Below are positions 4,872-61,715 of a stretch of DNA of 64,000 bases, in pieces. The notes under the pieces are model-generated. The model had not been told where the DNA came from. It saw only the letters and a list, made by a program, of their open reading frames with translations, and did not search any database. A program made the translations under genes and the position numbers. This DNA comes from Candidatus Moraniibacteriota bacterium. Its GTDB lineage: Bacteria; Patescibacteriota; Minisyncoccia; Moranbacterales; UBA2206. The stretch covers positions 108,589 to 172,588 of the forward strand of contig JAAXWW010000001.1 in NCBI GenBank assembly GCA_013334765.1, read 5' to 3'. Every line of letters begins with the position of its first letter. Position 1 is the stretch's first letter.

Positions 4872-5909
4872 ATGTCTGAGGAAAATAAAAAAGAAGAAAA
4901 AGGCAAAAAATTCACCGAGCTCCGCCAGGATCTGGTGACGGGGGATTGGGTGGTTATTGCCGCTAATAGGGCTAGGCGGCCGGAAGAATTCATCGTGCAT
5001 GACGATTGCGAGGTTGATGTCAGCGATGATGCCCAAAAGAAATGCTTTTTCTGCTATCCGGAAGAAACCGGTCAGGAAAAGGACGTTCTGATATATACGG
5101 ATGCGAAAAACGATTGGACGCTTAGGGTTTTTCCCAATAAATATCCAGCGTTCACCCGTGGGGATGAAATATCCCACCAAGAGGAAGGCCCGTATTTCAT
5201 GATGGAAGGAGTGGGATATCATGAGCTGGTGGTGACTAGGGATCACAAGAAATCGATCGCTCTTCTGGACAAAGAGGCGGTAGCGGAAGTGCTGGACGCC
5301 TATCAGGACCGCTATATTGATCTCATGAACAAGAAAAGCGTCAATTATATAGAGATATTCCATAACCATAAGAAAAGCGCCGGGGCATCCATTCCGCACC
5401 CGCATTCCCAGTTGGTGGCGATTCCGGTCATTTCCCCATATATAAAGTCCGAACTGGACGGAGCTGAGGAATATCACAAGATGAACAGGCATTGCGCTTA
5501 TTGCGCCGTGGCTGAGTGGGAAAGGGAAAATGGAAAGCGGGTCGTTTTCGAGAATGATAAGTTCATTGCGTTCTGTCCGTTCGCCTCGCGCGCCGCGTTT
5601 GAAATCTGGATCATGCCGAAAAAGCACAATCCATATTTCGAAAGGATGAGCACCGAAGACAAGCTGGAAGCGGCTGAAGCCCTTCAGGTATCGCTTGCAA
5701 AGATCTATGAATCGCTCGGCAATCCGGCTTATAATTTCTATTTGCATACGGCTCCATGCGACGGAAAGGATTATCCGCATTTCCATTGGCATATCGAGAT
5801 TCTGCCGAGGACCGCGCTTTGGGCGGGATTCGAACTTTCGACCGGAATCGAGATTTCAACAATCGAACCGGAAGCAGCAGCTGAGTTTTTGAGGAATGCG
5901 AAAGTATGA
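4872..5909 (+). CDS. galT: Galactose-1-phosphate uridylyltransferase family (HIT superfamily) protein
   Basis: Histidine-triad 'IPHPHSQ', 'FCPFASRAAFEIWIMPKKH', and Cys/His zinc motifs typical of class I GalT. Confidence 0.7.
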   Translation: MSEENKKEEKGKKFTELRQDLVTGDWVVIAANRARRPEEFIVHDDCEVDVSDDAQKKCFFCYPEETGQEKDVLIYTDAKNDWTLRVFPNKYPAFTRGDEISHQEEGPYFMMEGVGYHELVVTRDHKKSIALLDKEAVAEVLDAYQDRYIDLMNKKSVNYIEIFHNHKKSAGASIPHPHSQLVAIPVISPYIKSELDGAEEYHKMNRHCAYCAVAEWERENGKRVVFENDKFIAFCPFASRAAFEIWIMPKKHNPYFERMSTEDKLEAAEALQVSLAKIYESLGNPAYNFYLHTAPCDGKDYPHFHWHIEILPRTALWAGFELSTGIEISTIEPEAAAEFLRNAKV

Positions 5910-6012: not shown

Positions 6013-6666
6013 ATGTTTGCTGTTTGGATTAGCAAATTTATGATTAGCGGAATTATATCAGTACTAGCCAGTTTCATTATTTGGGGGATATCTTCGCTGG
6101 GATATTCCGGTGTGGCTCTTATGATGGCGATCGAATCGGCGTGCATCCCTCTTCCTTCGGAAATAATCATGCCTTTTTCGGGATACCTGGTTTCTACGGG
6201 CACGTTCACTTTGCTGGGCGTGGCCTTGGCTGGAGCTATCGGATGCGTTATCGGTAGCGTCCTGGCTTATTGGGTCGGATATTATGGCGGACGTCCGATG
6301 GCGGAAAAATACGGGAAATACATCCTGGTTACGAAGCATGATCTGGATATCGCCGATAATTTTTTTGGAAAATACGGCAATGCGGCGGTATTTTTTTCCA
6401 GGATGCTTCCTGTTATCAGGACTTTCATATCGCTTCCGGCCGGGATCGCAAGGATGAATTTCCCCCAGTTTGTCCTATATACCTTCTTGGGTTCTTTTCC
6501 TTTCTGCTATATCCTAGCTTATATAGGAAAAAAATTGGGCGATAACTGGGATACTTTAGGGGTGTATTTCCATAAATTCGATATCGGCATAGGTGTTCTC
6601 ATAGCAATCGGACTGATCTGGTTCGTGAGGAGGCATCTTAATATAAAAAAATCCGGTCGGGCTTAA
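6013..6666 (+). CDS. DedA/SNARE-associated family membrane protein
   Basis: Multi-TM protein with DedA-like 'GxxxGxxxGY..G' core; 217 aa. Confidence 0.7.
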   Translation: MFAVWISKFMISGIISVLASFIIWGISSLGYSGVALMMAIESACIPLPSEIIMPFSGYLVSTGTFTLLGVALAGAIGCVIGSVLAYWVGYYGGRPMAEKYGKYILVTKHDLDIADNFFGKYGNAAVFFSRMLPVIRTFISLPAGIARMNFPQFVLYTFLGSFPFCYILAYIGKKLGDNWDTLGVYFHKFDIGIGVLIAIGLIWFVRRHLNIKKSGRA

Positions 6667-7473: not shown

Positions 7474-8343
7474 ATGATTACAAGCGTAAAAGAGATTCTT
7501 GCGAAAGCTAAGGAAGGCGGATACGCGGTCGGCGCTTTCAATACGATAAACTTGGAAACGACTCGGGCAATCGTCGATGCGGCACAGGAGCTGAGGTCGC
7601 CGGTTATTATCCAGGTTACGGAGAAAACCATGGAATACGCGGGGGGCAGGATGATATTCAATATCATCAAGAATGAAGTGGAATTCTATGCTCCTGAGGT
7701 TCCGGTAGGGATCCATCTCGATCACGGGAAAAGTTTTGAAATAATAGAACGCGCGGTGGAAATCGGTTTCACTTCGGTCATGTATGACGGATCGAGAAAG
7801 AAATTCGCCGATAATCTCGATATCACTAAAAAAGTAGTCGCTCTTTGCAAAGAGAAAGGGGTGGATGTGCAGGGGGAACTGGGTAGCGTTCCGTATCTTG
7901 GAGAAGCCGGGACGGGTGAGATCAACTGGGATGAATATATGACCGATCCTGGACAGGCCGCGACGTTCGTTCGCGAATCAGGCATTGACGCTTTGGCTGT
8001 GGCGATCGGGAACGCGCATGGGTTCTTCAAAGAGCGGGAGGTGCCTGATTATGACAGGCTTGAGATGGTAAACAAATCCTGTGATAACATGCCGTTGGTC
8101 CTTCATGGCGCTTCCGATTGGGAGGATGGGAAAGTCAAAGAAGTCATAAGCCGCGGGATATGCTGCTTCAATGTCGACACGGCGATCCGGTTGGCTTTCA
8201 TAAATAGTGTTATAAATTCCACCAAGAACCAAGGGAGGAGCATTTCTTTCGATGTGCGTAATCTTCTAGGAGAGGCAAGGGAGGCGGTCAAGGACGTGGT
8301 AAAGCAGAAGATGATACTTTTCGGTTCTGACGGAAAGATATAG
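7474..8343 (+). CDS. fba: Class II fructose-bisphosphate aldolase
   Basis: 'GYAVGAFN', 'PVIIQ', 'HLDHG' class II aldolase motifs. Confidence 0.85.
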   Translation: MITSVKEILAKAKEGGYAVGAFNTINLETTRAIVDAAQELRSPVIIQVTEKTMEYAGGRMIFNIIKNEVEFYAPEVPVGIHLDHGKSFEIIERAVEIGFTSVMYDGSRKKFADNLDITKKVVALCKEKGVDVQGELGSVPYLGEAGTGEINWDEYMTDPGQAATFVRESGIDALAVAIGNAHGFFKEREVPDYDRLEMVNKSCDNMPLVLHGASDWEDGKVKEVISRGICCFNVDTAIRLAFINSVINSTKNQGRSISFDVRNLLGEAREAVKDVVKQKMILFGSDGKI

Positions 8344-12672: not shown

Positions 12673-13803
12673 ATGAAACACAAAAATATTTCAAATATAA
12701 AAACCGGTGCCAAGAAGAGGGTCCTTCGCAAAAAAATTGCGGAGCGGACAAAAAAGAAGGTCGCAAGAAAACCGGCAAAAAGGAAACATCTGGATATCGG
12801 ATCACTAACAGGAAAAAAATCACTGTTCGATCATATCAAGGGAAGCCTTGTGGCTTTTTCGAAAAAGAAAGAAGGCAAGAGTATCCCAGAAGAAGGGAGG
12901 ATAATTTCCATGAACGAACCGGTGAAGGAAATCGAAATCCCGATTGTTTTGAAAGAAGCAAGAAAGAATCCTGCAAAAAAAGCTCCTGCGAAAAAAAGGA
13001 AGAAGGCTGTTGCTGAGGAAACCGGGCTTATGAATCTTCCTAAGCCCCGCGTTGCGATCGTGAGCCTCACTTCGTGCGAAGGCTGCCAGTTCGTCCTTTT
13101 GGATCTCGGGGAAAGGTTTTTCGAGTTCGTGAAGAGCGTTGAACTGGTTGATTTCCGCATGGTCGAGGATCAGGAAGATGACAACCTGCAGCTCGATCTG
13201 GTGCTGGTGGAAGGCAATCCTGTTACTGAGGAGAATGTGGAAACTCTCAAAAGAGTGCGGGCTAGGGCCAAAGTCCTAGCGGCTCTTGGAAACTGTGCGG
13301 CGATGGGCGGAGTGCCAGAGATCAAGAACTATCAGAAAGGGAAGAGCACCATAAAGCACGTATACAAGTATATTCACGGCATAAGCAATCCTGAGATCAA
13401 GGAAATAGATAATTTCGTGAAAGTTGATTTCGTTTTCCCGGGGTGTCCGATTGACGGAGAAGAGTTCCTGAAATATATGCCAGAGCTTCTCAAGGGAAAT
13501 GTTCCGCAGATTCCGGATCAGGCGGTCTGTCTTGAGTGTAGGAAGAAAGGAAACAAATGCCTTCTTTTGGAGAAGAAGCCGTGCTTCGGTCCGATGATCC
13601 TGGGCGGATGCGATGCGGTCTGTCCTACGGCTAGGATGGGCTGTCAGGGTTGCCGCGGGCTGCGCCCGGAAGGCAGCATCAAAGTGATGCGTGCGACATT
13701 GAAAAGCATGATGACTGATGAAGAATTCGAGAATGTGACGGAAATATACGGCCTCAGGGATGATTTGGAAGAGAAAGAGAAAAAAGAGAAAAAGGAGAAG
13801 TAG
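12673..13803 (+). CDS. [NiFe]-hydrogenase small subunit (group 3-like) with a Cys-rich C-terminal extension; true start uncertain (alternatives 12910 or 13030)
   Basis: 'VAIVSLTSCEGCQ' proximal-cluster motif and 'CLECRKKGNKC...CFGP...GGCDAVCP...CQGCRG' extra Fe-S cysteines. The N-terminal ~119 aa are Lys/Ala-rich; a strong RBS gaagggagg precedes the ATG at 12910. Confidence 0.7.
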   Translation: MKHKNISNIKTGAKKRVLRKKIAERTKKKVARKPAKRKHLDIGSLTGKKSLFDHIKGSLVAFSKKKEGKSIPEEGRIISMNEPVKEIEIPIVLKEARKNPAKKAPAKKRKKAVAEETGLMNLPKPRVAIVSLTSCEGCQFVLLDLGERFFEFVKSVELVDFRMVEDQEDDNLQLDLVLVEGNPVTEENVETLKRVRARAKVLAALGNCAAMGGVPEIKNYQKGKSTIKHVYKYIHGISNPEIKEIDNFVKVDFVFPGCPIDGEEFLKYMPELLKGNVPQIPDQAVCLECRKKGNKCLLLEKKPCFGPMILGGCDAVCPTARMGCQGCRGLRPEGSIKVMRATLKSMMTDEEFENVTEIYGLRDDLEEKEKKEKKEK

Positions 13804-14266
13804 TCTCTACGAATTACGAATCTTACGAAATTACGAACAGCAGATGAAAACAAATAAAGATATCATATATGCCGATGAATCTTATGAGATTATTGGGATG
13901 ATGTATGAGGTTCATGACAAGATAGGATCTGGACACAAAGAAGTTTTCTATCAAAAAGCTGTAGCGGAAATTTTCAGGAAGAATGGCAAAAATTTCAAAG
14001 AGCAGCTAAGATTGAAGGTGAAGATGGGTGGCAAGGAAGTGGGAGAATATGTTCTGGATTTTTTGTATGAGGATATTATTGTCATAGAATTGAAGCAGGG
14101 TGAAGTTTTTTCAAAGAGCAATATAAATCAAATATATGTTTACCTGAAAGCGACCGGATTGAAACTTGGCTTGTTGATAAATTTTACAAGAAACGGAGTC
14201 AAATTCAAAAGAATCGTCAATATAGCATAAATTCGTAATTTCGTATAATTCGTATTTCGTAGAGAA
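13804..14266 (+). mobile_element. GxxExxY-gene cassette bounded by 'TACGAAT'-rich inverted repeats (copy E1)
   Basis: Left arm tctctacgaattacgaatcttacgaaattacgaac (13804-13838) and right arm attcgtaatttcgtataattcgtatttcgtagagaa (14231-14266) are reverse complements; inserted between the hydrogenase small and large subunit genes. Confidence 0.55.
13844..14230 (+). CDS. GxxExxY protein (PD-(D/E)XK nuclease superfamily)
   Basis: 'SYEIIGMMYEVHDKIGSGHKEVFYQKAV' (GxxExxY core) and 'ELKQGE' motif; start chosen at the internal Met 'MKTNKDIIY'. Confidence 0.75.
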   Translation: MKTNKDIIYADESYEIIGMMYEVHDKIGSGHKEVFYQKAVAEIFRKNGKNFKEQLRLKVKMGGKEVGEYVLDFLYEDIIVIELKQGEVFSKSNINQIYVYLKATGLKLGLLINFTRNGVKFKRIVNIA

Positions 14267-14269
14267 TTC

Positions 14270-15529
14270 ATGGAGATAAAAATAAACCACATTGCTAAGA
14301 TGGAAGGGCACACTGGCTTCATGGCGAGTGTGATTCATGGCGATGTGAAAGCTGCGAAACTGGAAGTCAAAGAGGGGATCCGTCTTATCGAGGGCGTGCT
14401 CATAGGCCGTGATTATCGGGATATGCCGGTGGTAGCGCAAAGGATCTGCGGGATCTGCCCGGTGGTGCACAACATCACTTCGATAAAAGCCATAGAGAAT
14501 GCGATGGGGGTTTCAGTCACGCCAGAGACGAAAAAGCTCAGGACGCTCATGGAATACGCCCAGATCATTCATTCTCATGCACTGCATCTTTTCTTTTTGT
14601 CCTTGGCTGATTTTTTGGATATGGATAATGACATCAAGCTCATGCAGGATTATCCTGAGGAAGCAAGGATGGCAATCAAAATACGCGAATACGGGATGTC
14701 GATTGTCAAAGTGATCGGAGGAAGGGTCGTGCATCCGCTCACTAATGAAGTCGGAGGATTCAAGAAGGCGCCGGATACTGAAGAACTCAAGAGGCTGCTT
14801 GATGAATCAGGGGAGGTGCTTAAAACGGCTCTGGAACTGGGAGAGTTTTTCAAGACGATCAAGGCCCCTGACTTTTCGCGCGAGACGGAATACGTATCTC
14901 TCGGCAAGAAAGGCGAATATGCCATATATGACGGCGATGTCATTTCTAATTTCGGGCTGCATATCCTGACGGAGAAATTCGAGAACAACTTCCTGGAGCT
15001 CCAGAAACAGAATGAGATCATAAAAAGGGTCGAGCATAGAGGAAAAAGCTATATGGTCGGAGCGATTGCCAGGTTGAACAATTCCAGGGAAAAACTCAGA
15101 CCGAAGGCGGCAAAATACCTGGAAAGTCTCGGCTGGAGCTTTCCGGACTATAATCCCTTCCACAACATCCTCGCTCAGATGACGGAACTTATCCACTTCA
15201 TTGAAGAATCTGCCAGGCTTCTTTCAGAGCTGCTCAATTGCGATCTGAATGAAGTCATAACCAAGGAATATGAAATCAAGGAAGGATCGGGTTCCGCGGC
15301 AGTGGAAGCTCCGCGCGGGACTCTCTACTACCATGTCGATATCGATCCGAAAGGATATATCAGGAACGTGAATATCATAACGCCGACGGCTCAATTCCTG
15401 TCGAACCTGGAAGATGACGTAGCGGCATATATCCCTGAAATAATAAACCTGGACCCGAAAGAAAGGGAGAAGAAGCTCCGCGCGTTCATCCGTGCCTATG
15501 ATCCGTGCATATCCTGCGCGGTTCACTAG
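14270..15529 (+). CDS. [NiFe]-hydrogenase large subunit (group 3-like), no C-terminal propeptide
   Basis: N-terminal 'RICGICPVVH' (RxCGxCxxxH) and C-terminal 'DPCISCAVH' immediately followed by the stop codon. Confidence 0.85.
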   Translation: MEIKINHIAKMEGHTGFMASVIHGDVKAAKLEVKEGIRLIEGVLIGRDYRDMPVVAQRICGICPVVHNITSIKAIENAMGVSVTPETKKLRTLMEYAQIIHSHALHLFFLSLADFLDMDNDIKLMQDYPEEARMAIKIREYGMSIVKVIGGRVVHPLTNEVGGFKKAPDTEELKRLLDESGEVLKTALELGEFFKTIKAPDFSRETEYVSLGKKGEYAIYDGDVISNFGLHILTEKFENNFLELQKQNEIIKRVEHRGKSYMVGAIARLNNSREKLRPKAAKYLESLGWSFPDYNPFHNILAQMTELIHFIEESARLLSELLNCDLNEVITKEYEIKEGSGSAAVEAPRGTLYYHVDIDPKGYIRNVNIITPTAQFLSNLEDDVAAYIPEIINLDPKEREKKLRAFIRAYDPCISCAVH

Positions 15530-15544
15530 ATAAAGTAAAAAATT

Positions 15545-15587
15545 AAAGGTAAAAAGTAAAAAATATTTTACATCTACTTTTTACCTT
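15545..15587. promoter_or_regulatory. AT-rich perfect 14-bp inverted repeat (aaaggtaaaaagta / tactttttaccttt) between the large subunit and hypA-like genes
   Basis: Read directly; could be a weak intrinsic terminator or an operator. Confidence 0.3.
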
Positions 15588-15613
15588 TTACTTCTAACTT
15601 TTAACTTTGAAAC

Positions 15614-15892
15614 ATGCATGATTTTCTATTAGCCAAAGAGATAATCGACAAGCTTCGCGAGATTGCCCAAGAGAAAAAGATTTCGAAGATAACTAGGGTC
15701 AATCTTGAAATAGGCAACATATCGATGAGCCACGACGGGCATCCGGAACACTTGGAGGAAATCAATATTGAAAATCTCGAATTCGGGCTTGGCGGAATCG
15801 TGAAAGACGATCCGATGTTCCGGGATGTTAAATTCGGTATCAGGAAAACTCAGAGCGAAAGCTGGGGCATAACGGATATCGAGGCGGAATGA
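15614..15892 (+). CDS. HypA-like protein lacking the zinc-finger cysteines
   Basis: N-terminus 'MHDFLLAKEIIDKLRE...ITRVNLEIGNIS' parallels the HypA 'MHE(L/I)SL...' Ni-binding N-domain; 92 aa with no Cys at all. Confidence 0.45.
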   Translation: MHDFLLAKEIIDKLREIAQEKKISKITRVNLEIGNISMSHDGHPEHLEEINIENLEFGLGGIVKDDPMFRDVKFGIRKTQSESWGITDIEAE

Positions 15893-18577: not shown

Positions 18578-18579
18578 GT

Positions 18580-18653
18580 GGGCTTATCTGGATTCGAACC
18601 AGAGACCTCGTCATTATCAGTGACGCGCTCTAACCAACTGAGCTATAAGCCCT
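18580..18653 (-). tRNA. tRNA-Ile (anticodon GAU)
   Basis: Reverse complement folds as a cloverleaf: GGGCTTATAGCTCAGTTGGTTAGAGC...CTGATAA...GGTTCGAATCC...TAAGCCCA. Confidence 0.85.
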
Positions 18654-18659
18654 TCCTGT

Positions 18660-18732
18660 GGACCCTATCGGGCTCGAACCGATCACCCCCTGCTTGCAAA
18701 GCAGGTGCTCTACCAAATGAGCTAAGGGCCCG
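18660..18732 (-). tRNA. tRNA-Ala (anticodon UGC)
   Basis: Reverse complement GGGCCCTTAGCTCATTTGGTAGAGC...CTTTGCAAG...GGTTCGAGCC...AGGGTCCA with G3:U70 Ala identity pair. Confidence 0.85.
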
Positions 18733-18770
18733 TTTTCCGTTAATTCCTGAGAAAACAGCACTAAGGACTA

Positions 18771-18798
18771 TTATACATAAAATTTTCAGCTTGTCTAC
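18771..18798 (-). promoter_or_regulatory. Candidate promoter for the tRNA-Ala/Ile pair (minus strand TAGACA-16-TATAAT)
   Basis: Reverse complement of 18771-18798 reads tagaca...tataat. Confidence 0.4.
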
Positions 18799-18803
18799 TT
18801 TTA

Positions 18804-18832
18804 TTGACAAAATCGTGGAAATGATATAGTAT
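18804..18832 (+). promoter_or_regulatory. Candidate promoter for secE-nusG-rplK-rplA (TTGACA-17-TAGTAT), divergent from the tRNA promoter
   Basis: ttgaca at 18804-18809; tagtat at 18827-18832. Confidence 0.4.
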
Positions 18833-18848
18833 TAGGTAAATAGAAAAA

Positions 18849-18865
18849 AGCCCTGAGGGGCTTTT
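18849..18865. terminator. Short GC hairpin (agccctgaggggct) flanked by an A-run and a T-run
   Basis: Symmetric; could terminate in either direction. Confidence 0.3.
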
Positions 18866-18877
18866 AAAAAAGGGGAA

Positions 18878-19003
18878 TTCTCTACGAATTACGAATTTTT
18901 ACGAATATACGAATCTTTTCTAAATCAGATTCATCCAGGTGGAAAGGCAAGGATTGCCAAGGAAGTATTCGTAATTTCGTAAAAATTCGTAATTCGTAGA
19001 GAA
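18878..19003. repeat. 'Empty' copy (E2) of the TACGAAT-rich inverted-repeat element with no gene between the arms
   Basis: Arms tctctacgaattacgaatttttacgaatatacgaat (18881-18914) and attcgtaatttcgtaaaaattcgtaattcgtagagaa (18966-19002) flank only about 50 nt. Confidence 0.55.
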
Positions 19004-19028
19004 TACAGACAATTTTAAAATCAAAAAC

Positions 19029-19214
19029 ATGAATAAGATTGCCCAATTTTTCAAAGAAGCCAAGGTTGAGCTCATGAAGGTCAATTGGCCGACCAAGAAA
19101 GAGACGATAAATTACACGATGGTCGTTATCGGCATAAGCCTCGGAACGGCGATCTTTCTCGGAGGGTTGGATTATTTTTTCGAATTCATCTTGAAAACAT
19201 TTATTATAAAATAA
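19029..19214 (+). CDS. secE: Preprotein translocase subunit SecE
   Basis: 61 aa with a single C-terminal TM; position immediately upstream of nusG. Confidence 0.75.
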   Translation: MNKIAQFFKEAKVELMKVNWPTKKETINYTMVVIGISLGTAIFLGGLDYFFEFILKTFIIK

Positions 19215-19225
19215 CCTTATAAACT

Positions 19226-19771
19226 ATGGCCAAGCAATCGCAGCACCACGGAAGAGCATGGTATGTCATCCACACCTATTCCGGTTACGAGGATAACGTA
19301 GCGAGGAATCTCAAGCAGAGGATCGAATCCATGGACATGCAGGAATATATTTTCGATGTCATGGTTCCGATGGAGAAGAAGATCAAGATCAAAGCCGGAA
19401 AAAGAACGGTTGTTGAAGAGAAGATCTATCCGGGATATGTCCTTGTGGAAATGGTCGTTACGGATGCTTCATGGTATGTCGTAAGGAATACTCCGAACGT
19501 GACCGGATTCATCGGGCTTGGAACCACTCCGACTCCGGTCGATCCGAAAGAGATCGAGATGCTCAAGAAGAGGATGGGAGTGGCTGAGCCGAAATACAAG
19601 ATCGACGTCAAGGAAGGCGATGTGGTCAAGATCACTGACGGTCCGTTCAAGGATTTCGATGGCAAAGTCAGCGAGGTGGATGAAGAGAAAGGGAGAATCA
19701 AGGTGTTCGTTTCCATTTTCGGTCGCGAAACTCCCGTGGAATTAGACTTTTTACAGATTAATAAGATATAA
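19226..19771 (+). CDS. nusG: Transcription termination/antitermination factor NusG
   Basis: NGN domain 'AWYVIHTYSGYE' and KOW motif 'GDVVKITDGPFKDFDGKV'. Confidence 0.9.
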   Translation: MAKQSQHHGRAWYVIHTYSGYEDNVARNLKQRIESMDMQEYIFDVMVPMEKKIKIKAGKRTVVEEKIYPGYVLVEMVVTDASWYVVRNTPNVTGFIGLGTTPTPVDPKEIEMLKKRMGVAEPKYKIDVKEGDVVKITDGPFKDFDGKVSEVDEEKGRIKVFVSIFGRETPVELDFLQINKI

Positions 19772-43024: not shown

Positions 43025-43255
43025 CAAAGATAAAAGCGTTTGAGGAAGGCTATCACCTTCCGAGCTGGGGAAAGAAATGTTTGTCGTAGCATGAAGGCAA
43101 CCCGCCTTCGTCCCGCTGAGCGGGACTACGGCGGGCGAAGTAGAATCTCCCGGGTTTGCCCGTAACAGCTAGAATGAAGCCCTGATTTTTTCGGGGGAAT
43201 TAAGGTGGTACCACGCTATTGGCGTCCTTATGTTGTATTGAGGGCGTTTTTTATT
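43025..43255 (+). promoter_or_regulatory. Putative T-box leader (Ile specifier) for ileS
   Basis: 'aattaaggtggtaccacg' at 43198-43215 matches the T-box consensus AATTAGGGTGGTACCGCG at 16/18; candidate specifier 'ggctATCAcc' at 43048-43057; nested GC hairpins at 43095-43135; T-run at 43246-43252. Confidence 0.4.
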
Positions 43256-43721
43256 AGACTACGAAATACGAAAATATTACAAAAATACAAAAAATGGAGA
43301 CGGGCAAAGTTATTTATAAGGAGTTAAGTTATGAGATAGTCGGTGCTGCTTTTGAAGTTTTTAAAGAGCTTGGACCTGGCTATAAAGAGAAACATTATGA
43401 AGATGCTGTCTCAAAGGAATTTACAAAAAGAAATATAAGCTATAAAAGACAGATACAATATAAATTGCTATATAAAGGAGAATCAATAGGAATGAATCAG
43501 TTTGATTTCCTGATAGATGATAGAATAATCGTAGAGTTGAAACGCGGAGATTATTATTCTAAAAACAATATAGACCAAGTGATCCAATATTTGAAGACGT
43601 CCAAGCTGAAGCTGGCCATTCTCATAAATTTCACATCAACCGGAGTAAAATTCAAACGAATATTGAATATAAAATAGTTTGTAATTTTTGTATTTTTGTA
43701 ATAATTTTGTAATTTTGTAGG
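43256..43721 (+). mobile_element. GxxExxY-gene cassette with TACGAAA/TACAAAA-type inverted repeat arms (copy E3), between the T-box leader and ileS
   Basis: Left arm agactacgaaatacgaaaatattacaaaaatacaaaaa; right arm tttgtaatttttgtatttttgtaataattttgtaattttgtag (imperfect reverse complement). Confidence 0.5.
43294..43677 (+). CDS. GxxExxY protein (PD-(D/E)XK nuclease superfamily), paralog of the 13844 gene
   Basis: 'SYEIVGAAFEVFKELGPGYKEKHYEDAV' and a C-terminus 'KLAILINFTSTGVKFKRILNI' nearly identical to the other copy. Confidence 0.75.
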   Translation: METGKVIYKELSYEIVGAAFEVFKELGPGYKEKHYEDAVSKEFTKRNISYKRQIQYKLLYKGESIGMNQFDFLIDDRIIVELKRGDYYSKNNIDQVIQYLKTSKLKLAILINFTSTGVKFKRILNIK

Positions 43722-61632: not shown

Positions 61633-61715
61633 GCTTGCCGTCATGGTGCTATTTTACTTGCCTTTCGTTCGCTTCGCTCACACGGAAGCCGCAAAATAGC
61701 ATCATGACGGCAAGC
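61633..61715. repeat. Long near-perfect inverted repeat (25-bp arms, about 33-nt loop); hairpin/terminator, possibly a degenerate relative of the MITE-like family
   Basis: gcttgccgtcatggtgctattttac...gcaaaatagcatcatgacggcaagc; loop contains 'cgcttcgctc' as in the MITE termini. Confidence 0.5.

Follow-up and report, generated by a model that had tools for sequence, protein, structure and literature searches.

A gene-less TACGAAT-repeat palindrome upstream of secE in Candidatus Moranbacteria: a probable member of a family of insertions resembling rRNA intervening sequences

Introduction

The DNA analysed in this study is a 64-kb stretch (the window) of a metagenome-assembled genome (MAG) of Candidatus Moranbacteria. 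A 126-base palindrome of TACGAAT-type heptamers, named E2, lies in it just upstream of secE and contains no gene. Two further elements of the window, E1 and E3, have arms of the same kind around a gene of the GxxExxY family. In a preliminary description of this DNA, E1 and E3 were regarded as full copies of a mobile cassette and E2 as its solo or excised remnant. The question raised by the locus is what kind of element E2 is and how it is related to its gene-bearing counterparts.

E2 is probably a gene-less member of a family of selfish palindromic insertions of the intervening sequence (IVS) type, and this was the best explanation of the data as a whole. The family to which E2 belongs has four TACGAAT-type heptamers per arm, with starts 7, 10–11, and 8 nt apart, and E1 and E3 are gene-bearing members of it. 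The analysis showed a dispersed family in which the heptamer architecture is fixed and a gene may be present or absent; it occurs in spacers and at rRNA IVS sites and is gained or lost between relatives. All comparative data were MAGs or metagenome contigs.

Results

Three elements in the window

E1, E2, and E3 were found at the three places proposed earlier, two with GxxExxY genes and one gene-less, and they were the only elements of the window with inverted arms of four TACGAAT-type heptamers. A regular expression for the four-heptamer architecture matched their six arms and nothing else in the window. The 14-mer TACGAATTACGAAT occurred 7 times at up to 2 mismatches, with 0.57 occurrences expected, and 0 of 100 shuffles reached 7. 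The left arms of E1 and E2 were identical over the first 18 nt (TCTCTACGAATTACGAAT). The arms of E1 (34 nt, 91% complementary) and those of E3, a TACGAAA/TACAAAA variant in a cassette of 461 nt, surround open reading frames (ORFs). The arms of E2 (45 nt, 89% complementary) are separated by 38 nt without an ORF. The features of the three loci were as follows.

13804–13837, plus strand: left arm of E1, directly 3′ of the stop codon of the hydrogenase small-subunit gene (12673–13803)
13844–14230, plus strand: ORF of E1, cargo gene of the GxxExxY / PDDEXK_3 family, 128 aa, nuclease motif E33-D72-E82-K84 intact
14232–14265, plus strand: right arm of E1, separated by 4 nt from the ATG (14270) of the hydrogenase large-subunit gene
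18804–18832, plus strand: promoter-like site TTGACA-17-TAGTAT, upstream of E2
18846–18865, no strand assigned: short GC hairpin, then TTTTAAAAAAG, kept in relatives; E2 is inserted a few bases further on
18877–18921, plus strand: left arm of E2, four TACGAAT heptamers at 18883–18913, with ATTCTC in front
18922–18959, plus strand: loop of E2, without an ORF, with a small internal hairpin GGCAA-GGA-TTGCC
18960–19004, plus strand: right arm of E2, reverse-complement heptamers at 18968–18998, arm end CGTAGAGAAT
19029–19214, plus strand: secE, with its ATG 24 nt past the right end of E2; nusG follows at 19226
43030–43232, plus strand: T-box leader of ileS; E3 sits between this leader and ileS
43260–43293, plus strand: left arm of E3 (TACGAAA, TACGAAA, TACAAAA, TACAAAA), starting 11 nt past the T-box terminator
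43294–43677, plus strand: ORF of E3, cargo gene, GxxExxY paralogue of 127 aa with about 45% identity to the E1 protein
43678–43720, plus strand: right arm of E3, TTTGTA-type heptamers, 4 nt before the ileS ATG (43725)

Each element lies in a predicted transcribed, untranslated spacer directly ahead of a start codon. E1 is located between the [NiFe]-hydrogenase small- and large-subunit genes (hydD|hydA). E2 is located in the secE leader, downstream of the promoter-like site and the small conserved GC hairpin; because that site lies upstream, E2 was placed within the secE–nusG leader transcript. E3 is located between the T-box and ileS. The T-box matched RF00230 with 47.5 bits (E = 1.4e-9), which is under the Rfam gathering score, so the default Rfam scan had missed it. 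Lying between the T-box terminator and ileS, the E3 cassette would be under T-box control.

The predicted RNA structure of E2 was a single long stem (−59.4 kcal/mol, z = −10.7). For E1 and E3, pairing of the arms across about 390 nt, with the ORF enclosed, was seen in both minimum-free-energy and centroid structures. A long double-stranded stem formed by the element ends and enclosing the insert is a feature of IVSs, and it was predicted for all three elements.

Insertion at the secE and ileS sites

The secE site was unoccupied in the relatives L215/L216, L218, and L220, whose NusG proteins are 94, 90, and 89% identical to that of the window. In these leaders, the conserved GC hairpin and TTTTAAAAAAG are followed by the ATG within 20–25 nt. 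In L217 (NusG 91% identical), the secE site holds a different hairpin of the family, with TACTAAT/TACGAAT arms and an unrelated loop. The ileS site was unoccupied in L245, L246, and L247 (IleS 87, 85, and 74% identical), where about 22 nt separate the T-box terminator from the ATG. Since the secE and ileS sites are unoccupied in close relatives, E2 and E3 are insertions. Sporadic presence among close relatives, another feature of IVSs, was thereby observed at both sites.

Hairpins of other kinds were seen in the same relatives. The nusG|rplK spacers of L218 (2040–2160) and L220 (2040–2200) hold hairpins of other short repeats, ATGTTTC in three copies and GAATTTAGAAT / ATTCAAAATTC; the corresponding spacer of the window is only 15 nt. 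A heptamer-repeat hairpin (TTAGTTT... / ...CTACAAACCACAAA) lies inside the ileS T-box leader of L247 (1350–1420), and a GC hairpin lies between the T-box motif and the terminator of the ileS leader in L245 (1410–1445).

Gene-bearing cassettes in relatives

A metagenome scan seeded with 11 closer GxxExxY sequences gave 537 relatives of the E1 protein; 80 loci were retained, and contig look-ups added 13. The resulting set comprised 68 non-redundant cassettes with relatives at least about 35–46% identical; because the scan used the 11 closer sequences, it is biased towards relatives from the candidate phyla radiation (CPR). The GxxExxY gene was nearly always bracketed by TACGAAT arms in this set. 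The arm layout was CTACGAAT-TACGAAT, 3–4 nt, TACGAAT, 1 nt, TACGAAT; the opposite side had its reverse complement, and TACTAAT, TACAAAT, and TACGAAA occurred as heptamer variants. A heptamer-start spacing of 7 / 10–11 / 8 was found in 64 of the 109 arms flanking GxxExxY genes, and the information content of these 109 arms was concentrated in the heptamers, with values near zero for the spacers.

The cassettes were closely fitted to their host operons. Neighbouring genes were on the strand of the cassette gene in 59/59 cases upstream and 55/61 downstream. The median distance from gene to neighbour was about 38–42 nt, which equals the arm length, so the cassette fills the spacer exactly. The last heptamer was 2–12 nt from the next ATG in 40 of 49 cassettes. 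A role of the right end as a Shine-Dalgarno source for the next gene was rejected, as only 12 of the 49 tails had a Shine-Dalgarno-like motif and many tails were 2–4 nt long.

The arm-gene-arm unit recurred at several genomic sites, in agreement with the view of E1 and E3 as inserted cassettes. It was found at hydD|hydA in the window, L122, L135, L139, and L140, and at rpsG|fusA in L128, L143/L086, L144, L145, L206, L209, and L210. Further junctions in other genomes were pilC|pilin, upstream of greA, and DsbA|porG. A Planctomycetota MAG (L034) had TACGAAT arms around a GxxExxY protein of 46% identity. Two compound or nested elements were also observed: in L122 (6388–6470) a GC-rich hairpin (GCCCGTCTGCAATGCAAGCAAAGCTTTGCGGGCAGG) interrupts the right cassette arm, and in L196 (3376–3480) half a right arm is followed by a complete gene-less hairpin.

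The ORFs of E1 and E3 scored 102 and 114 bits against TIGR04256 (cut-off 35) and 98 and 109 bits against PF13366 (cut-off 22); by these profile matches, both encode clear GxxExxY / PDDEXK_3 proteins. E33, D72, E82, and K84 were invariant in 21 sequences. The AF2 model (pLDDT 92.8) showed a PD-(D/E)XK fold, nearest to Cas4, lambda exonuclease, tRNA-splicing endonuclease, and Hjc, and the I-Bth0305I catalytic domain was a weak Foldseek neighbour. The catalytic residues and the modelled fold are those of a PD-(D/E)XK nuclease, and nuclease activity is predicted. No relative of solved structure was found by sequence search. The GxxExxY/PDDEXK_3 family is large, with 21,547 representatives at 50% identity (E ≤ 0.001). 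Many members are proteins of about 260–275 aa with two GxxExxY domains in tandem (e.g., P0365, P0367, and P0368), which suggests a dimeric functional unit. In the 2012 survey of PD-(D/E)XK proteins, the function of GxxExxY/PDDEXK_3 was listed as unknown (PMC3424549).

Between the hydD|hydA cassettes, dN was 0.10–0.22 and dS was saturated; the heptamers persisted nonetheless. Therefore, the protein is maintained and the heptamers outlast neutral saturation. The cassette ORF is under purifying selection, and the heptamers likewise.

Gene-less hairpins and rRNA copies

The arms were also sampled without regard to the gene, by an exact scan for the 15-mer CTACGAATTACGAAT in one genome per species (596 Gb). 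At least 120 loci were obtained. The locus count alone means little, because about 1,100 chance matches of a 15-mer are expected in 596 Gb. At least 72 of the 120 listed loci had further heptamers, 48 in the canonical 2+2 architecture and 24 as pure tandem arrays. Among the matches listed, the loci spanned at least five phyla, with Patescibacteria, Bacteroidota, Planctomycetota, Gammaproteobacteria, Bdellovibrionales, and Nostocales. The arm motif is thus far from confined to the loci of E1–E3, contrary to a distribution that would have spoken against the preliminary description.

Many of the arm-motif loci were short hairpins like E2 (e.g., L061, L068, L101, L118, and L096), and gene-less hairpins are the majority form. 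In some CPR genomes, a TACGAAT hairpin was present in nearly every spacer of the ribosomal-protein operons, as in L096 around rplF and rpsC and in L209 at rpsL|rpsG (1131–1251).

One gammaproteobacterial MAG (L035) carried three TACGAAT-armed hairpins in an rRNA operon. They were located at 23S model positions 583/584 (the loop of helix 25) and 1218/1219 (the loop of helix 45) and in the 23S–5S spacer. Helices 25 and 45 of 23S rRNA are the classical IVS sites, and thus the TACGAAT family includes true IVSs. The 23S rRNA gene of L035 (2078–6187, minus strand) measured 4110 nt versus a 2925-position model, with about 1.2 kb of inserts. Judged strictly, by location at the tip of 23S helix 25 or 45 in an rRNA gene, E1–E3 are not IVSs themselves, as they lie in mRNA spacers or leaders.

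Cassettes with other heptamers (ATGTATT, TTAGTAT, TAAATTG, and AATTTTGAA) enclosed ORFs resembling the S23p / PF05635 four-helix-bundle protein. The PF05635 assignment was by precomputed match in L122 and by eye from the sequence in L069, L141, L204, and L175. In L122, the gene for this ‘23S rRNA IVS protein’ lies in the hydA|hypA spacer (7759–8210) between TAAATTG-repeat arms. In the window, the hydA|hypA spacer holds a gene-less hairpin of another kind (15511–15622), with 48-nt arms that are 71% complementary and consist of GTAAAAA/AAAGTAAAAA-type repeats.

Arms were also observed in other arrangements. In L071, two arms at 5650–5690 and 6124–6165 are in direct, not inverted, orientation, 474 nt apart, from which it follows that arms also exist as independent units. 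All pure tandem arrays that could be placed by taxonomy belonged to Nostocales. These were plain (TACGAAT)n arrays of up to 11 units (e.g., L044, L076, L106; L008, L039, L045, L103), some of them paired in the opposite order, with ATTCGTA arrays, about 110 nt, and then TACGAAT arrays. No GxxExxY gene was found in the 8 kb covered per Nostocales locus.

Two further features of the window were noted. On the minus strand at 18578–18731, tRNA-Ala(TGC) precedes tRNA-Ile(GAT), and no rRNA gene was found in the window; the tRNA pair is apparently driven by a promoter-like site, in the region 18770–18832, divergent from that of secE. At 61633–61715, a near-perfect hairpin lies between two genes, with 23-nt arms (96% complementary) and a 37-nt loop; it has no relation to the heptamer family and may be a terminator.

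Discussion

An explanation of the IVS type

The elements occupy spacers that are predicted to be transcribed but not translated. They follow a stop codon or a leader, precede the next start codon by 2–12 nt, have the orientation of the host genes, and would be transcribed by read-through. Pairing of the arms in the transcript would give about 30 bp of stem, interrupted by an internal loop at its centre. RNase III may cut this stem, as shown experimentally for rRNA intervening sequences, and such cutting would remove or separate the insert with little harm. The E. coli secE–nusG leader and intercistronic sites of phage T7 are processed by RNase III. As in IVSs, the transcript stem could well be an RNase III substrate that makes the insertion tolerable, and this step is somewhat favoured. 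The elements would then be operon-spacer counterparts of the 23S rRNA IVSs.

Spread would depend on the encoded nuclease, acting on heptamer arrays or on empty target sites, and gene-less copies would be non-autonomous or decayed passengers. This part is put forward tentatively: the nuclease may recognise the heptamer arrays or the empty sites and drive the spread, with the hairpins as non-autonomous forms. A broader proposal is possible but doubtful at present. GxxExxY proteins could be the mobility or processing nucleases of an unrecognised class of autonomous elements, probably dimeric, which recognise TACGAAT arrays and move or maintain the arm-gene-arm unit. Gene-less hairpins would be the non-autonomous derivatives, seen for 35 years as rRNA IVSs, and the PF05635 cassettes would behave likewise with other heptamers. 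There is a substantial chance that a new class of nuclease-associated mobile element is represented here.

Several observations weigh against the IVS-type explanation. A GxxExxY gene, searched for with the family hidden Markov model in 8 kb per locus, was near only 3 of the 120 listed arm-motif loci, and the idea of such a gene beside every arm was rejected on this count. The pairing of cargo and arms is not absolute, because a Saccharibacteria GxxExxY gene (L030, 1488–1886, minus strand; 35% identical) has quite different flanking repeats, of GCGAGATTA/GCAAGATTA type, without TACGAAT. We know of no cleavage or binding activity for any GxxExxY protein. No target-site duplication was found in 48 elements, where the best direct repeats were 2–3 nt, at chance level. 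RNase III requires no specific sequence, so it leaves the conservation of TACGAAT across phyla unexplained. Transition mismatches between the arms were as often sense- as antisense-compatible (48 vs. 47 in 68 cassettes), so pairing is not demonstrably selected at the RNA level. Finally, solo right-type ATTCGTA arrays, with no partner within 1.3 kb, stand 2–15 nt upstream of the ATGs of long ORFs in several phyla. Because these arrays directly precede start codons, a cis-acting motif fits them better than a stem. A stem acting only as RNA had been suggested by two coding-strand G·U pairs in the arms of E3; it was dropped, as the 68 cassettes showed no G·U bias.

Weighing of other explanations

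Some of these observations agree with host cis-regulation. In this case, a sequence-specific trans-acting factor would bind the heptamer arrays, on mRNA or DNA, and their position ahead of start codons would serve the control of translation or mRNA stability; the inverted pairs and genes would be secondary. The comparison of arms is consistent with such a role. Arm-to-arm identity was 95% at heptamer positions and 40% in the central spacer, vs. 32 ± 8% for shuffled partners, and the spacer length differed in 12 of 30 cassettes. The stem thus has an unconstrained internal loop, and it is the motif itself that is conserved. Heptamer sequence was therefore kept far more than complementarity, G·U strand bias was absent, and the heptamers persisted despite saturated synonymous sites. 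The solo arrays before ATGs also have a parallel in the TAACTGA direct repeats beside start codons of Beggiatoaceae, Cyanobacteria, and Bacteroidetes (PMC4679880). However, complementarity is not limited to the heptamers: the base that adjoins the first heptamer on its outer side covaries as C:G or T:A and was 88% complementary, vs. 50% in shuffles (shuffle maximum 70%). Elements are present or absent at one site among close relatives, identical hairpins occur in 23S rRNA and the 23S–5S spacer with no start codon downstream, and cis-regulation does not account for arms that are consistently paired in inverted orientation around a nuclease gene. It is the main rival to the IVS-type explanation but rather unlikely.

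That E2 is the scar of an excised GxxExxY cassette, or of a deleted gene, was the suggestion of the preliminary description. The 18 nt shared with E1 and the common four-heptamer layout agree with it. The loop of E2, however, contained no start or stop remnant and no likeness to GxxExxY on inspection, which did not include an alignment. The loop of the L217 hairpin at the secE site is unrelated, and no examined relative has a GxxExxY cassette at that site. Gene-less hairpins far outnumber cassettes and also occur as IVSs inside a 23S rRNA gene. The mobile-cassette view thus holds for an inserted family with and without a gene, as borne out by the occupied and empty sites among close relatives, and is not supported for E2 as a remnant. 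An excision scar is improbable.

With inverted repeats at their ends and many intergenic copies, the elements also resemble conventional miniature inverted-repeat transposable elements (MITEs), non-autonomous derivatives of a transposon with terminal inverted repeats (TIRs) whose transposase is encoded elsewhere. The check for target-site duplications suggested earlier gave nothing beyond chance, which makes a classical TIR transposon unlikely. No transposase was found between such arms in 240 loci, which cover loci and not whole genomes; only GxxExxY or four-helix-bundle ORFs were present. In addition, the arms consist of internal tandem heptamers with unconstrained spacers, and the ORF is always co-oriented with the host genes. 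A MITE origin is very improbable.

The position in the secE leader and the very stable fold would also suit a structured RNA dedicated to the secE–nusG operon, as its leader or terminator. This reading can be dismissed, since E2 is one of a dispersed family and is missing from the closest relatives, in which the leader is otherwise conserved. Its AT-rich stem is followed by ATACAGAC with no U-tract (the terminator scan reported only the neighbouring GC hairpin), and it has no match in Rfam; at gathering thresholds, Rfam gave only the two tRNAs of the window and no match on hairpins from 16 loci.

Significance

IVSs with inverted repeats and ORFs are already known, and so are palindromic intergenic repeats. 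Literature searches gave no description of GxxExxY armed cassettes, of TACGAAT arrays, or of IVS-type elements populating mRNA spacers, consistent with the earlier remark that GxxExxY genes are undescribed as TIR-bounded elements. Phages as vectors of the spread across phyla received no support: the 24 viral-contig matches were mostly isolated 15-mers without arm architecture.

The fixed link to inverted heptamer arrays at operon junctions gives the large orphan GxxExxY family a testable role. The TACGAAT family also ties rRNA intervening sequences to cassettes in ordinary operons. With the same hairpins at 23S helices 25/45 and in mRNA spacers, beside nuclease-bearing relatives, the origin of IVSs becomes experimentally approachable. 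For annotation, the elements account for many odd small ORFs and hairpins in the ribosomal-protein, hydrogenase, pilus, and tRNA-synthetase operons of CPR bacteria, and ‘conserved’ intergenic hairpins in CPR operons may be insertions.

Comparison with known systems

The TAACTGA heptamer repeats stand in 2–6 copies immediately before start codons in distant phyla, including Bacteroidetes and Cyanobacteria (MacGregor 2015; PMC4679880). The solo ATTCGTA arrays likewise adjoin start codons, which makes them similar to these repeats and to cyanobacterial tandem heptamers. In contrast, the heptamer is another one, and TACGAAT arrays are mostly inverted, stem-forming pairs, often around a gene.

The RNase III signals of phage T7 are intercistronic structures of stem, internal loop, and stem between early genes of a polycistronic transcript. 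The E1–E3 elements are predicted to have the same order of stem, internal loop, and stem directly ahead of the next cistron, whereas the T7 signals are immobile, lack palindromes of repeated heptamers, and do not surround a gene.

Homing endonuclease genes are comparable in that a small nuclease gene occupies recurrent housekeeping sites (rpsG|fusA, hydD|hydA, and rRNA helices) that are empty in relatives, and the weak structural likeness to I-Bth0305I points in the same direction. Unlike homing elements, the insert lies between genes, with no intron or intein, and has conserved inverted heptamer arms, which are not a homing feature; its cleavage of empty sites is putative.

REP/BIME palindromes and their RAYT genes (REPtrons) consist of many short intergenic palindromes, a few copies of which are a small gene flanked by inverted repeats. 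The TACGAAT family likewise has intergenic palindrome copies, few of them with a repeat-flanked small gene. The cargo is a PD-(D/E)XK protein and not an HUH Y1 transposase, so that the family falls outside the REPtrons, and each arm is built of heptamers in tandem, not as a hairpin unit.

The closest counterparts are the IVSs of 23S rRNA. RNase III excises the IVSs located at helices 25 and 45, the IVS of Coxiella has tandem heptameric repeats (GACAGAT) beside the S23p ORF that it bears, and the origin and spread of IVSs have been an open question since 1990 (PMC4990558). The window copies differ from the IVSs of Leptospira and Coxiella (S23p / PF05635) in their location in mRNA leaders and operon spacers, in a cargo of PF13366 PD-(D/E)XK type instead of S23p, and in an arm heptamer conserved across phyla, and their excision by RNase III, which in IVSs takes place without religation, is predicted. 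In common with these IVSs, they have a long stem of terminal inverted repeats, a loop with or without an ORF of about 120 aa, heptameric repeats by the ORF as in Coxiella, and a sporadic distribution among relatives. Sister cassettes carry a PF05635 ORF (L122) or, as recognised by eye, PF05635-like ORFs (L069, L141, L204, and L175), and exact TACGAAT-armed hairpins stand at helices 25 and 45 of the L035 23S gene.

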